Source of the DNA: a virus
DNA: 31,518 nt
Reading direction: 5' to 3' (one strand)
UHGV virus genome: UHGV-0133195
Part shown: in pieces, positions 1 to 31,468 of the stretch
Layout of the letters: each line of letters opens with the position of its first letter
How positions within the stretch are numbered: the stretch's first letter is position 1
The notes under the pieces: model-generated
The model's database searches: none
Told to the model about the DNA's origin: nothing
Seen by the model: only the letters and a program-made list of their open reading frames with translations
Translations under genes and position numbers: made by a program

Positions 1-106
1 CTGCGCTCAGTCTCAAATTAATACAATCTGATTTTGAGTCTAACAAAGGAAAGATAAATGTCACGATATAACAAAATAGCGTAAATGTGATTTGTTACAT
101 CAAAAA

Positions 107-121
107 AACAGATTGTTTTTT
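107..121. other. Candidate attL core (left copy of 15-bp direct repeat AACAGATTGTTTTTT)
   Basis: Exact 15-bp match to 30704-30718; lies about 100 bp beyond the 3' end of the integrase gene, as expected for a P2-type int-att arrangement. Confidence 0.4.
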
Positions 122-227
122 ATGTGGTGATGAAAAATCAATGATTTACCTTTATTTTCAATTGGTTGTTTGCTAATCGGCTCTATTGAAACCTAATCAA
201 ATCTGAGTGATTGGGTCAAAATGTGGA

Positions 228-1214
228 TCACTTTTGCCCCCTCATGAACACTGGATTTAATGTAATGGCGTCCTGTAAATAATCAGGTGCAAGGTGTGCA
301 TATGCCATTGTTTGATTAATTGAAGCATGGCCCAGAATTTTTTGCAGAGTGAGTATATTTCCACCGTTCATCATAAAGTGGCTGGCGAAGGTGTGCCTCA
401 TTACGTGGGTAGCCTGACCAGCAGGTAAATCAAACAGACCTTTCAATATGTCACGGAAAGCGAAATAGTCAGCATCGGGGAAAATGCTTCCTGATTTACG
501 GTTTTTGGTGATCTCATCATGCAGCGATGCGCTAATGGGAACCGTTCGATTTTTACCGTTTTTTGTATCAGTGAAAACAGCTTTGTATTTCAGAATGCGC
601 GAACGTTGGATTTGTGCAGCCTCATCCCATCGCGCACCAGTGGACAAGGCAAATTTTGCGAGGCGTAGATTGTCACCGTCCAGGGCAAGCAGTAGTTGCT
701 CAATTTGCGATGAGGTAAGAAATATTTTCTCGTTTTCCGTGGTTTTAACACGGGGAAGATTAGATAGGGGGTTGCTTTGTGAATACTGACCAGCCTTAAT
801 TAGTGCGGTGAAAACGCCACTGAGCAAAGCATGTTCCCGGTTAATGGTAGTAGGGCTGATACCGGCAAGTAGCCGGTTAGCCCGATATTCGGTAAACATC
901 TTTTTGTTAATGTCACCGGCGCTAGGGTTGCTGAGTTCGTAGCATATGCGATCCAGCTCAATCCGCATGATTTCCCCAGATTTTAAAGATTGGCCGTGAT
1001 ACTTCCACCAGGCTGCGATCAACTCCTCCAGAGTTCGGGTATCTTTCTTATCATCAACCATCCATTCTTTGTTGTTGTAATTCGAGACAGCCCACCGTTC
1101 GAAGCGTAGCGCTTCCGCGCGGGTGGCAAAGCGCCGACGCAGCCGCACACCCTTGCGGCCCTGTGGTCGCAAGTCCACCATATACCGACCATCTTCAAGT
1201 TTGTTGATCGTCAT
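228..1214 (-). CDS. int: Tyrosine recombinase (phage integrase, P2 Int-like)
   Basis: C-terminal catalytic region with HxxR-type motif (VMRHTFASH) and ...LGHASINQTMAYAHL ending typical of tyrosine integrases; first in-frame ATG at 1214 (MTINKLEDGRY...); the track ORF extends upstream to 1283. Confidence 0.9.
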   Translation of the reverse strand: MTINKLEDGRYMVDLRPQGRKGVRLRRRFATRAEALRFERWAVSNYNNKEWMVDDKKDTRTLEELIAAWWKYHGQSLKSGEIMRIELDRICYELSNPSAGDINKKMFTEYRANRLLAGISPTTINREHALLSGVFTALIKAGQYSQSNPLSNLPRVKTTENEKIFLTSSQIEQLLLALDGDNLRLAKFALSTGARWDEAAQIQRSRILKYKAVFTDTKNGKNRTVPISASLHDEITKNRKSGSIFPDADYFAFRDILKGLFDLPAGQATHVMRHTFASHFMMNGGNILTLQKILGHASINQTMAYAHLAPDYLQDAITLNPVFMRGQK

Positions 1215-1353
1215 TTGTGTTACCTGGTTTGTCTGAGTTTTAGATGTTTTTAATTTCAATACACTTTTAGTTAACAAGAACATTCGTTAACCCAGAAATC
1301 ACGGTAGTGACAGATGCCACCTTTACCCCATCGTTTCATTATTTCCGAAGCAA

Positions 1354-1656
1354 CTACCCAACCTTTTTCGTCTTTTGGGGCTTCGATGTGCTCTCGCATC
1401 CATTAGGGGAGAGAGCCGGACTGATCTGCCCGGCAGCTTCATTTGTTTCACCATTCATTAACCACGTCGTGTATTTTTTGAACATGGGGTGATTGGTTAT
1501 TTTCATCACGGTATCAATCCCAATATTCTCCCTTCTGCCGAGTTCATACTCCTTTTGTGTTGTCTCCGGTATTCCTGTTAATTCAAAGAATTGAGTTCTG
1601 GTTAGCCCCTCGGATTCTCTTACTTCTCTGATTTTTTTACCTATGCTTGTTGACAT
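1354..1656 (-). CDS. Immunity repressor, P2 C-type (about 100 aa)
   Basis: Small protein adjacent to and co-oriented with int, divergent from the early operon; by recollection resembles P2 C (KYTTWLMNGE and GQISPALS segments). First in-frame ATG at 1656 (MSTSIGKK); the track start at 1695 is a TTG. Confidence 0.7.
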   Translation of the reverse strand: MSTSIGKKIREVRESEGLTRTQFFELTGIPETTQKEYELGRRENIGIDTVMKITNHPMFKKYTTWLMNGETNEAAGQISPALSPNGCESTSKPQKTKKVG

Positions 1657-1710
1657 GGTGGCAATCGCCTCCCTATACTCGCCGCATGGAGGCAATTGCC
1701 GCCATCGTGA

Positions 1711-1747
1711 TAATCAAATCTATTCAGCTCTAATCGAATCTGAATAG
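1711..1747. promoter_or_regulatory. Operator-like repeats in the repressor / early-operon intergenic region
   Basis: Direct repeats TAATCAAATCT (1711-1721) and TAATCGAATCT (1731-1741) 20 bp apart, overlapping an 8-bp inverted repeat CTATTCAG (1720-1727) / CTGAATAG (1740-1747). Confidence 0.35.
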
Positions 1748-1768
1748 CCCAAACGATGAGGATAAAAC

Positions 1769-2029
1769 ATGCGGACAAGCAAAACAAAGCCATTGGTGAT
1801 GTCGGTGCAGGGTTGCCCCGTGATTTTTTGCATCCCCCAGCCGCGTATGACCGTTGAGCAGTACGCCCAGATGACCAATCAGGGGTTGAGAGCCGTTCAA
1901 CAGCAAGTTGACGCTGGAAAGTTCATCACTGCTAAAGGCAAATACGGGAAATACCGCGAGATCAATATGGTGGCTGAATTTCTTAAAGAATTCAGGGATG
2001 CGCAGGAAGCATTAAAAGAGAGCGCATAA
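1769..2029 (+). CDS. Cox/Apl-like small DNA-binding protein (excision and switch regulator), putative
   Basis: First gene of the rightward early operon, directly opposite the repressor; GAGGA Shine-Dalgarno 6 nt upstream of the ATG; size and position match P2 Cox; sequence similarity judged by eye only. Confidence 0.5.
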   Translation: MRTSKTKPLVMSVQGCPVIFCIPQPRMTVEQYAQMTNQGLRAVQQQVDAGKFITAKGKYGKYREINMVAEFLKEFRDAQEALKESA

Positions 2030-2067
2030 AAGTATATCCAGTACTTTTCAATTTGACGGAGATCAAC

Positions 2068-2289
2068 ATGGACTTATCACAATGCCCTTCACTTGCCAGC
2101 CTGCTTACCCACGGCCAGCAGATCACCCACCGTCAGCATCAACGCGGCTGGATTGAAACCCCGGACGGGCGTTTCTTCCAGCCTAAAGCGGCAGATGTTC
2201 AATTTGTTAAAAACTGCCGTTTACCGTTTATGTCACGCCCGCGTAATAAGCGCCGCTGGTTTTCCCGCTTAATGGGTATCTTCGCGTAG
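2068..2289 (+). CDS. Hypothetical early protein (73 aa from ATG at 2068)
   Basis: ORF in the early operon with GGAG upstream of the ATG at 2068; the track start at 2053 is a TTG; basic C-terminus; no recognisable motif. Confidence 0.45.
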   Translation: MDLSQCPSLASLLTHGQQITHRQHQRGWIETPDGRFFQPKAADVQFVKNCRLPFMSRPRNKRRWFSRLMGIFA

Positions 2290-2304
2290 TTCGGGGAGGT
2301 GGTT

Positions 2305-2694
2305 ATGTTGATGGATAAAACAGGACAACAGCCCGGCCGCCGCCAGTTCTTAGAGCAACGTGCGCGGCTGCAAGCCAGTTTGAACGCCTCACGTGTGAAT
2401 GACACTGCAACCCGTTTTAACCGCCTGGATGATGCCTGCAAAAAGGTGATTTTCATCCTGGCAAACGATGCGTCCAGATACATAGCCGGAATGCCGAAGC
2501 TGACCGCCAAACAGTTGGGTTGCACTTACGAAAATCTAACCGAAAAGGAGCAAACGTGCCTTTTGATGGGCATTAAGCGCCTTTCCGAATTTGCAGCATC
2601 AATGCCGTGGGAATTTGAGGACTACGCCGCACCACGCGCCGAAATTCAGGCGATACGCGACAAACCACCCGCGCCAGATAACGCAGTCAATTAA
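2305..2694 (+). CDS. Hypothetical early protein (about 129 aa)
   Basis: ORF preceded by GGGGAGG; ATG at 2305 (the track uses a GTG at 2299); function unknown. Confidence 0.5.
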   Translation: MLMDKTGQQPGRRQFLEQRARLQASLNASRVNDTATRFNRLDDACKKVIFILANDASRYIAGMPKLTAKQLGCTYENLTEKEQTCLLMGIKRLSEFAASMPWEFEDYAAPRAEIQAIRDKPPAPDNAVN

Positions 2695-2764
2695 CAACTA
2701 ACTACCCACAAAAAAGAGACAGGCGCTAACGCGTCGGGCTTCTTGCACCCTGGAGAAAGTAAAA

Positions 2765-3748
2765 ATGATTCGATCTCTCGTTAAATGGCCCGGTGGTAAA
2801 GGCCGCGTTATGCCTGATTTGCTGCCGATTCTGCCGAAAGCCGATTGCCTGGTGGAACCGTTTGTCGGCGGTGCTTCTGTTTTCCTCAATACTGAATATC
2901 GCCGTTATATCCTGGGTGATATCAACCCAGATTTAATTAACCTGTATCGCCAGATAACCCGCTGGCCTGATGCGGTGATCGACGCTGCTCGCCCGCTGTT
3001 TAAAGTGTACGGTGATAAAGACGGCTATAAGTGGATCCGCGACGATTTCAACGCTCGCGCCCATGACCTTCTGTCATCGCGCAATGTGTTTGAGGACGGA
3101 CCGGACGCGGGCAAGATTCTTCGTGCAGCACAGTTTCTTTACCTGAACCGTCACGGATATAACGGCGTAGTGCGCTACAACCAACAGGGCGGATATAACG
3201 TTCCCTTTGGTAGACACAAAACCCCGCCTTACTTCCCGGAAGAACAGATCCGTTTATTCTCTGAAAAAGCTAACGACACGAAAGCTATTTTCGTGTGCTG
3301 CGATTTCCAGAGCACGTTAAAAATCATGATTGGTAGTGACGCAGTTATCTACTGCGATCCGCCATACCTGCCAACAAGCGAAACCGCTAATTTCACCCAA
3401 TACCACACCGCCCCGTTTGGGATTAAAGAGCATCGCCAGTTAGCTGCAGCCCTGCTGGATATTAACCGCCTTACTGGTTCGCCGGTGATCCTGTCCAATA
3501 GCGACACCCCAGCCACCCGCGAGATTTATCGCGCTTTCAACTTCCAGGAAATCAGCGTTAACCGTTCTGTCAGTGCGAACGCCATTACCAGAGGGGCCGC
3601 CAGTGAAGTGATTGGCGTCCTGAAAGTGTGTAGCGGCTGCGGTCGTGCCGGTGGTGGCCGTTGCCCTGATTGTGGCCCTGTCATGGGTAACGCGACCTAT
3701 AACGAAATGCTGGCAACGGCTGCGGCCTATGGCGTGGAGCCGTTCTGA
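2765..3748 (+). CDS. N6-adenine DNA methyltransferase, Dam-like, with C-terminal Cys4 zinc-ribbon-like tail
   Basis: N-terminal WPGGKG and FVGGASVF motifs and catalytic DPPY (CDPPYLP); C-terminal CSGCGRAGGGRCPDCG cluster. Confidence 0.85.
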   Translation: MIRSLVKWPGGKGRVMPDLLPILPKADCLVEPFVGGASVFLNTEYRRYILGDINPDLINLYRQITRWPDAVIDAARPLFKVYGDKDGYKWIRDDFNARAHDLLSSRNVFEDGPDAGKILRAAQFLYLNRHGYNGVVRYNQQGGYNVPFGRHKTPPYFPEEQIRLFSEKANDTKAIFVCCDFQSTLKIMIGSDAVIYCDPPYLPTSETANFTQYHTAPFGIKEHRQLAAALLDINRLTGSPVILSNSDTPATREIYRAFNFQEISVNRSVSANAITRGAASEVIGVLKVCSGCGRAGGGRCPDCGPVMGNATYNEMLATAAAYGVEPF

Positions 3749-30524: not shown

Positions 30525-30703
30525 CTGGATAACCAAGAAACCGAAGTCTAACGGCTACGTGCATTCAGGAAAAGGAAAAAGCCCAGCAGTATCTGCAAGG
30601 CTTTGAGTTGGTATCACAAGGACTAACACTTCGACGTGGTCATTTTGTGGACCTATTAATATAAAAATCAATTAAAATCAATGTGTTATGTTGAATGTAA
30701 AAT

Positions 30704-30718
30704 AACAGATTGTTTTTT
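30704..30718. other. Candidate attR core (right copy of 15-bp direct repeat)
   Basis: Exact copy of 107-121; immediately adjacent to the stop codon (30719-30721) of the MurR/RpiR-family gene. Confidence 0.4.
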
Positions 30719-31468
30719 TTACGCTATTCTTTTCGCCAGCTTGCGACCGAGTGATTCCAGAATATAAATAACGGGGATCTGCGTGGTTATATCGTATACC
30801 CCGGCAATACGTGTTTGTGGAACATGCCAGGAGAGGTTAAAGTCGGCGAGTTTCGCCAGGCGAGAGTGTTCATGGCTGGTGACCGACAGAACCTTACAGT
30901 TGTGCAGACTGAACTGGCTGGCAAAGCGCAGGATCTCTTCTGTTTCACCAGATACGGAAAGCACGATCGCCAGCGCGTTTCTGGCCATGTCGTTAGTGAC
31001 CGGGAAATAAGGATCGTCAATGTGATTACTGAATTTACCGACGTTTGAGAAAAAACGTGCGCCATATTTTGCCAACGCTCCAGACGTTCCTGCTCCGACG
31101 AATATAATACGTTCGGACGATAATATAATATCAACAGCCTGATCGAGCAGTTTATCGAACTCGTCGTTATTGACGCCTTTAAAGAAACTGATAATTTCGC
31201 TGGCACCGAAATTAGCCTGTTGCGGTTCATTCTGCTCTAAATATAATTTGAAGCGCACGCGAAATTCTGAGTAACCTTCACATTTAAGCTTGCGGCAAAA
31301 GCGCAGTACGGTGGTAGTAGAAACACCCACGGCATCGGCCAGCTCGCGAATGGTCATGTACATGACTTTGTCACGGTTTTTGATGACATAGTTGTAGACC
31401 AGCATCTCAAGATTGTTGAGACTGGCGATGGCAGCGTGGGAGAACATACTCACAATGGCAAAACTCAC
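30719..31468 (-). CDS. MurR/RpiR-family transcriptional regulator (HTH plus SIS domain), probable host gene
   Basis: N-terminal HTH region (TIRELADAVGVSTTTVLRFCRKL) and SIS sugar-phosphate-binding region (IIFVGAGTSGALA); the true start may be an internal Met (for example MFSHAAIASL). Confidence 0.8.
   Translation of the reverse strand: MSFAIVSMFSHAAIASLNNLEMLVYNYVIKNRDKVMYMTIRELADAVGVSTTTVLRFCRKLKCEGYSEFRVRFKLYLEQNEPQQANFGASEIISFFKGVNNDEFDKLLDQAVDIILSSERIIFVGAGTSGALAKYGARFFSNVGKFSNHIDDPYFPVTNDMARNALAIVLSVSGETEEILRFASQFSLHNCKVLSVTSHEHSRLAKLADFNLSWHVPQTRIAGVYDITTQIPVIYILESLGRKLAKRIA

Follow-up and report, generated by a model that had tools for sequence, protein, structure and literature searches.

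The C repressors of the P2 family are held up as the paradigm for recognition of non-palindromic direct repeats. In the operators published for them, two repeats spaced by 22, 26 or 34 bp stand on either side of a hexamer belonging to the early promoter, Pe (PMC1904268). Cox and Apl, which are the products of the first early gene, bind direct repeats one helical turn apart both between face-to-face promoters and at the att site, with three adjacent sites being sufficient for binding of this type (PMC7498355, PMC3936717).

The window analysed here, a stretch of 31,518 nucleotides from the virus genome UHGV-0133195, opens on the left end of a 30.6 kb P2-like prophage, in which attL, int, the gene for the C repressor and a divergent gene for a Cox-like protein follow in this order. 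The C repressor matches P2 C (2XCJ/2L49) over its full length (residues 1–100, E-value 3.2 × 10−16) and also matches phrog_147 (E-value 1.6 × 10−32). On the 3′ side of the early gene, which encodes a protein of 86 residues, are a Fil homologue, a Dam methylase gene and a replication gene. A search of phage and E. coli nucleotide collections with positions 1200–2700 produced no close match to the immunity region, with only distant C homologues and downstream genes being returned. The features of the att region and the genes that adjoin the switch are as follows.

102–121, att core AAAAAAACAGATTGTTTTTT (attL), repeated at 30699–30718 (attR)
123–130, TGTGGTGA, the second of two sequences resembling a P2-type Int arm site
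about 135–148, AAATCAATGATTTA, an IHF-like sequence
178–184, 188–194 and 198–204, plus strand, att-arm boxes CGGCTCT, GAAACCT and CAAATCT in the int-proximal part of attL, a proposed Cox-type excision site
222–229, plus strand, TGTGGATC, resembling a P2-type Int arm site, abutting the int stop codon and conserved in all related loci
228–1214, minus strand, int, with Int_N and Phage_integrase domains
1354–1656, minus strand, gene for the C immunity repressor (100 residues), of the P2 C family by homology to P2 C
1769–2029, plus strand, first early gene, encoding the 86-residue Cox-like protein, which is proposed to bind the boxes

The att core is itself nearly palindromic (AAAAAACA-GAT-TGTTTTTT) and is located at the 3′ end of a host gene for an HTH_6/SIS regulator (30719–31468, minus strand). 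In loci L018 and L020 a related prophage with an inverted core (…CAATCTG…) is inserted the other way round at this gene end, with its int beside the gene. The left flank of attL (positions 75–85) holds AATAGCGTAAA, which in reverse complement is the end of the host gene at attR (30719–30729); ATGTGAT, a sequence similar to an Int arm site, comes after it. This AATAGCGTAAA flank could be left over from a previous integration event, or the phage may carry its own copy of the end of the gene.

The gap between the divergent C gene and the first early gene (1657–1768) was originally predicted to be an immunity operator consisting of paired 11 bp direct repeats 20 bp apart interlaced with an 8 bp inverted repeat and followed by a GAGGA ribosome-binding site. 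All of these elements are present between the two genes, and the general reading of the gap as the operator region of a P2-type lysis/lysogeny switch is supported. The direct repeats TAATCAAATCT (1711–1721) and TAATCGAATCT (1731–1741) are identical at 10 of 11 positions and start 20 bp apart, and the arms of the inverted repeat, CTATTCAG (1720–1727) and CTGAATAG (1740–1747), are complementary at 8 of 8 positions with 12 nt between them. With at most one mismatch allowed, TAATCRAATCT occurs four times in the window compared with an expected 0.77, a count that was reached in 1 of 100 shuffles. A third exact copy of the 11-mer is found at 194–204, in the part of the att arm that adjoins the 3′ end of int. 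A one-mismatch copy, TAATTAAATCT at 2929–2939 (minus strand), is located inside the Dam methylase gene; it is isolated, without phased partners, and is probably a chance occurrence. Three features were missed in the original prediction: a stronger pair of repeats within the coordinates of the gap, a near-consensus promoter between the members of this pair, and a 10 bp phased array to which the pair spaced by 20 bp belongs. The elements in and around the gap are listed below.

1650–1655 and 1674–1679, plus strand, early promoter Pe, with −35 TTGACA, an 18 nt spacer and −10 TATACT (11/12 match)
1657–1672, O1, proposed C site, GGTGGCAATCGCCTCC, a 16 bp near-palindrome (12/16) between the −35 and −10 hexamers of Pe
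1688–1703, O2, proposed C site, GGAGGCAATTGCCGCC, a 16 bp near-palindrome (14/16) just downstream of the Pe −10 hexamer and 31 bp from O1
1715–1721, 1725–1731 and 1735–1741, plus strand, switch boxes CAAATCT, CAGCTCT and CGAATCT, a proposed Cox-type operator
1720–1747, inverted repeat CTATTCAG/CTGAATAG, interleaved with the boxes, with arms that carry candidate elements of the promoter Pc on the minus strand
1758–1762, plus strand, GAGGA, ribosome-binding site for the cox-like gene, with 6 nt separating it from the start codon at 1769

Pe is the only strong σ70 match within positions 1200–2100. Among the relatives, defined as the fetched loci that encode members of the 86-residue protein family with 57–100% identity, it is top-scoring at the equivalent position in 13 of 13 loci, although the compared loci are related to each other and such counts are therefore not independent. 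Its −35 hexamer overlaps the C start codon (CAT, 1654–1656), as is annotated in P2, and its start would be near 1686, which places the 11 bp repeats at +26 to +56. The repeats are thus downstream of Pe and do not flank it, in disagreement with their proposed role as P2-like C half-sites on either side of the early promoter. The sequences that do flank the Pe −10 hexamer are CATGGTGGCAATCGCCTCC (1654–1672) and CATGGAGGCAATTGCCGCC (1685–1703), which are 31 bp apart. In the dyad scan a score of at least 12/16 was reached by 0.4% of random 16-mers from the window. The pair at 1657–1672 and 1688–1703 shares with P2 O1/O2 the feature of repeats flanking a Pe hexamer, and judged by sequence these two near-palindromes, O1 and O2, situated 20–50 bp to the left of the 11 bp repeats, are most likely to be the C operator. 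Paired Pe-flanking sites in the form of 16 bp near-palindromes centred on AATT (12–16/16) are seen in at least nine immunity types (the window, L001–L005 and L015–L034), with O2 usually being the more perfect palindrome.

The switch and the att arm each carry three 7 bp boxes (CRRMTCT) at an exact spacing of 10 bp, ending at 1721, 1731 and 1741 and at 184, 194 and 204, so that both sites present three direct repeats about one helical turn apart. The 11-mers at 1711–1721 and 1731–1741 correspond to boxes 1 and 3 preceded by TAAT leaders. Since TAATC, the left half of the box 1 11-mer, varies between loci that share one type of Cox, the exact 11-mer is not the recognition unit. When the 37-mer at 1711–1747 was compared with every position of the window on both strands, its closest match other than itself was a wider att module of 37 nt at 174–210 on the same strand (26/37, with the next best at 22; binomial P-value times positions about 3 × 10−4), indicating similar recognition sequences at the switch and the att arm. 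With the att core on one side of it and the Int arm-like TGTGGATC by the int stop codon on the other, this module occupies the same relative place as the annotated 74 bp Cox site in P2 attP. The three-box pattern RRMYCT-N4-RRMYCT-N4-RRMYCT occurs at only two places in the 31.5 kb (the switch and 179–204) and was not matched in 100 shuffles, but it was derived post hoc and is a description rather than a test. In relatives with the same Cox type the pattern matches the switch, and also the att arm where the fetched DNA reaches that far. Autocorrelation of the switch and att segments from eight loci was 0.46 and 0.49 at a lag of 10 and 0.48 and 0.43 at a lag of 20, compared with 0.26 in controls (SD of the mean about 0.025); the experimentally defined Cox footprints of P2, used as a positive control, gave 0.36–0.46 by the same measure. 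A 5 bp sub-period is also visible in 1711–1750 and 174–213 as pentamers ending in TC (TAATC, AAATC, TATTC, AGCTC, TAATC and GAATC), with autocorrelations of about 0.35 at lags of 5 and 15 versus 0.26 in controls.

Strings shared between the switch and the att arm are likewise found in other Cox sub-families, namely CAAATCCGGTTGAAT in L029 and AACAAATCTCATC in L031, and ATAAGCAGTTACAAG is common to both sites in L005, which combines a P2-type Cox with a C of the family found in the window. In L018 the Int is only 79% identical and the core is different, while the Cox is 95% identical and the att boxes match at 34 of 37 positions; in loci where Int has diverged to a similar extent but Cox is only 62–75% identical, the boxes are different. 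The box sequences thus appear to vary together at both sites and to track the type of Cox, not that of Int or C. An ungapped matrix of cognate versus non-cognate switch and att 38-mers, which is a crude measure, separated only the TCT and TCCGG box classes.

Loci L007–L010 and L015–L019 encode Cox proteins that are 95–100% identical to that of the window and have the same sequence from about −55 to the cox ATG, together with five different C N-terminal domains (35–79% identical to that of the window). Each C type has its own pair of repeats around the Pe −10 hexamer (GGAKCTAATTAGCTCC, GTACT...AGTAC, TGGTC-ATT-GACC, or GGTAACC-N4-GGTGAC twice), and there is a sharp drop in identity to the window between −60 and −52 relative to the cox ATG (window positions 1709–1717). 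The GGCAATYGCC cores are kept in L020 and L034, in which the N-terminal halves of C are 88% identical, and other C types have other cores. The 11 bp repeats, on the other hand, do not change with immunity type and are constant across at least five C N-terminal types. As the Pe-flanking pair changes with the type of C and the boxes are constant with Cox, the former goes with C and the originally noted repeats go with cox. Comparison with related loci had been suggested as a check on the original prediction, and its outcome argues against the assignment of these repeats to C.

The C-terminal halves of C are still 88–96% identical in L015–L017, and the exchanged cassette therefore consists of the N-terminal half of C and O1–Pe–O2. 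This cassette of immunity specificity (C residues 1–52 and O1–Pe–O2; window 1500–1716) is swapped between otherwise near-identical prophages, with breakpoints in the middle of C and at 1709–1717. In a previous survey, 31 P2-like phages were reported to be free of chimeric regulatory regions (PMC3448106). In L020, L022 and L027 the stretch from −58 to −1 is 84–88% identical, versus 72–80% for the cox gene, suggesting that this stretch is under purifying selection and is better conserved than the cox coding sequence there. A scan of contigs with C found only relatives with 57–68% identity, which were used as outgroups, and when viral contigs were scanned for the exact pattern, the matches were confined to four contigs that Cox had already led to. 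In L001 (Yersinia pekkanenii) the cox-like gene upstream of the C gene is apparently frameshifted or degenerate (a reading frame of 62 residues), and phased CAATCC/GAATCC boxes and palindromic operators are retained despite this apparent degeneration.

A further proposal is made tentatively, with its chances put slightly short of even. The dyad-symmetric 16 bp pair NNNNNNAATTNNNNNN, with its members about three helical turns apart, would be the operator of a P2 C-family repressor within the same 112 bp region as the Cox boxes, and C residues 1–52 with O1–Pe–O2 would form a specificity unit that is exchanged as a cassette, its right breakpoint being the first Cox box. If this is true, dyad-symmetric C operators would question the generality of the direct-repeat model, and the natural protein/operator pairs collected here, at least nine in number, would form a ready-made series for deriving a recognition code.

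The first early gene is predicted to encode a winged-helix protein with the Cox/Apl/Xis fold. Its family comprises 25 clusters from Salmonella, Enterobacter, Klebsiella and Kosakonia, all of which are annotated as `hypothetical'. Searches with the 86-residue protein produced no match in Pfam or NCBIfam and only spurious ClpP matches in a sequence-profile search of the PDB. There was a weak hit to phrog_575 (`Cox-like excisionase and repressor') and no significant sequence match to P2 Cox, with hhalign aligning 26 residues over the helix–turn–helix to P2 Cox residues 14–39 at a probability of 15%. The protein does not fall within the P2 Cox family (Pfam Phage_Cox) and the CRRMTCT boxes do not conform to the cox-box TTAAA(G/C)NC(A/C), suggesting that the region works like a Cox operator but lies outside the P2 Cox specificity group. 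The N-terminus MRTSKTK (window 1769–1792, cox codons 1–8) is nearly invariant in all 24 family members even though it is predicted to be disordered (pLDDT < 60). The bases that encode it carry a candidate Pc −35 element on the opposite strand, and the near-invariance of these codons suggests a constraint at the DNA level.

Two candidates for Pc were found on the minus strand. Candidate A has a −35 element TTCAGA (1744 to 1739), a 16 nt spacer and a −10 element TAGATT (1722 to 1717). Its score is weak; its elements are in the arms of the inverted repeat, it is 6–9 bp from the annotated Pc of P2 relative to the cox ATG and it is limited to loci of the window type, being absent from L029, L031 and L034. 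Candidate B (TTGTTT at 1787 to 1782, 17 nt, TATCCT at 1764 to 1759, the complement of the GAGGA region) is present in 13 of 13 loci, but this presence is confounded by the ribosome-binding site and cox codons 5–7. The boxes would lie on the core of Pc in the case of candidate A or otherwise at about +5 to +40 of Pc, the start being near 1710 for candidate A and near 1751, about 10 bp upstream of the boxes, for candidate B. The arms of the inverted repeat are invariant in loci with 75–85% identical Cox (L020, L022–L024 and L027). The interleaved 8 bp inverted repeat is probably the −35/−10 region of Pc and not a protein-binding dyad. The original suggestion that a second regulator such as the Cox-like protein acts here is retained in that this protein is probably involved, but the inverted repeat is more likely to be related to the promoter than to be its site, being absent from the att copy (174–210) and coincident with the candidate Pc elements.

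Taken together, the direct repeats are probably a Cox/Apl-type operator rather than a C operator, in a P2-type switch in which O1/O2 would serve C and the boxes at Pc and attL would serve the Cox-like protein in the control of Pc and of excision. That the two repeats are half-sites of the C immunity repressor in the manner of P2 O1/O2 is very improbable. Their location in the C–cox intergenic region and their spacing of 20 bp, close to the 22 bp of P2 O1/O2 (PMC1904268), would agree with such a role, but they flank neither the −10 nor the −35 hexamer of Pe and they are unchanged alongside five other C N-terminal domains (35–79% identical), whereas the Pe-flanking pair changes with C. They are also found again in the att arm, a place at which no role of C is known, and no secondary sites have been reported for P2-family C proteins (PMC1904268). 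A common function at the att arm and the switch could alternatively be sought in IHF sites or Int arm-type sites, given that TAATCAA resembles the WATCAA core of IHF sites and that one copy in the att arm lies between Int arm-like sequences. The full IHF consensus WATCAANNNNTTR is not matched by any of the three 11-mers, however, the TTR element being absent at the right spacing, and the P2-type Int arm consensus tgTGGaCa (PMC3448106) is unrelated to the boxes and is found elsewhere, at 123–130 and 222–229. With these mismatches to consensus and with boxes that track the identity of Cox and not that of Int, both the IHF and the Int arm-site readings were rejected, and the chance that either is correct is considered to be negligible.

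The remaining alternatives concern the inverted repeat. In L020, L022 and L027 no letters are more constant than those of its arms, and the arms coincide with the candidate TTCAGA-16-TAGATT, which is within 6–9 bp of the annotated P2 position of Pc relative to the cox ATG. The conserved letters could therefore represent the Pc core promoter only, with no dedicated Cox binding and an incidental similarity to the att arm. This is unlikely, as it leaves unexplained the att-arm match of 26/37, which no other place in the window equals, the co-variation of switch and att in other sub-families and the 10 bp phasing at an att site that lacks the inverted repeat; in addition, the candidate scores weakly as a promoter and is missing from L029, L031 and L034. 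The inverted repeat might instead act as an RNA hairpin that controls stability or processing, located in the 5′ leader of the early transcript from Pe and possibly also in an antisense Pc transcript, with the direct repeats being secondary; this is decidedly unlikely. The hairpin appears in the minimum-free-energy fold of 1686–1790, and 78% of cells pair in the given register across 13 loci, with two pairs changing on both sides, although the shuffle control for these pair counts is inflated by the relatedness of the loci. The fold z-score of −1.28 is not significant, RNAalifold yielded no consensus structure and Rfam gave no relevant match in 1–3000; moreover, single uncompensated mismatches occur in L018 and L019 and other sub-families pair in a different register.

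The preferred reading, a Cox-type operator beside a separate C operator, can be formulated as a mechanism. What the analysis shows is how the sequences are arranged, that they co-vary, which fold is predicted and that the positions are equivalent to those in P2. Region 1657–1768 would be a P2-type switch with face-to-face promoters, in which C would bind O1 (1657–1672) and O2 (1688–1703), bracketing the Pe −10 hexamer. The boxes (1715–1741) come after Pe and before the cox-like gene and would sit on the lysogenic promoter Pc or immediately downstream of it, and monomers of the 86-residue protein could bind the three boxes cooperatively in a head-to-tail fashion. Such binding would shut off Pc, so that synthesis of C and Int would stop, and higher levels of the Cox-like protein would probably also damp Pe. 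At the att arm the protein would bind boxes 178–204, bend the DNA and steer Int towards excision. The assignment of ligands to sites, the position of Pc and the direction of regulation are inferred from sequence. Repression of Pc and the direction towards excision are modelled on the literature on P2 Cox and 186 Apl.

Assignment of the operator to Cox instead of C would correct a plausible but wrong annotation and would propose a function for an unannotated family of 86-residue `hypothetical' proteins in prophages of Salmonella, Enterobacter and Klebsiella. The locus appears to be an ordinary P2-type lysis/lysogeny switch in which the box and operator sequences are new and the Cox family is unrecognizable by sequence, and current understanding is not overturned by these findings. 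The architecture of the P2 switch, with C sites on Pe and phased boxes for a recombination factor at Pc and att, would hold even where the sequences themselves are unrecognizable. The natural swaps provide testable repressor/operator and Cox/box pairs for the engineering of orthogonal phage switches.

Among known systems, the P2 Cox operator resembles the present one in involving a small winged-helix protein from the first early gene and phased direct boxes at 10–11 bp between Pe and Pc, with boxes that start at −51, −41 and −32 from the cox ATG in P2 and 10 bp units that start at −58, −48 and −38 here. In both, a second set of boxes lies between the att core and the P′ arm sites of Int at the 3′ end of int. 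The boxes differ in sequence (CRRMTCT here, all in one orientation, versus TTAAA(G/C)NC(A/C) in P2) and in number, with three visible per site here and at least six in P2, and P2 Cox has no significant sequence similarity to the 86-residue protein. The C repressor, a homologue of 99–100 residues, and the overlap of the Pe −35 hexamer with the C start codon are common to P2 and the window. The likeness to O1–O2 of P2, P2 Hy dis and WPhi concerns the pair at 1657–1703 and not the 11 bp repeats; the centre-to-centre distances are 22, 26 and 34 bp, respectively, in these phages and 31 bp around the −10 hexamer here. The proposed C sites here are 16 bp near-palindromes, in contrast to the non-palindromic direct repeats of 8–10 bp described for P2 (PMC2995052) and for Hy dis and WPhi. 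Apl of coliphage 186 similarly uses direct-repeat operators (6 bp in 186) one turn apart at pR–pL and attP, with a minimum of three adjacent operators (PMC7498355); 186 has seven and five operators and a CI-type repressor, whereas the window has three and three boxes and a P2 C-type repressor. The λ Xis sites X1–X1.5–X2, as summarized in PMC7498355, also form a set of three phased sites in one att arm, bound in λ by head-to-tail monomers and with a weaker middle site. Unlike the role proposed for the Cox-like protein, λ Xis has none in a lysis/lysogeny switch; the middle box here is the one that deviates most, in parallel with the weaker middle site of λ Xis.
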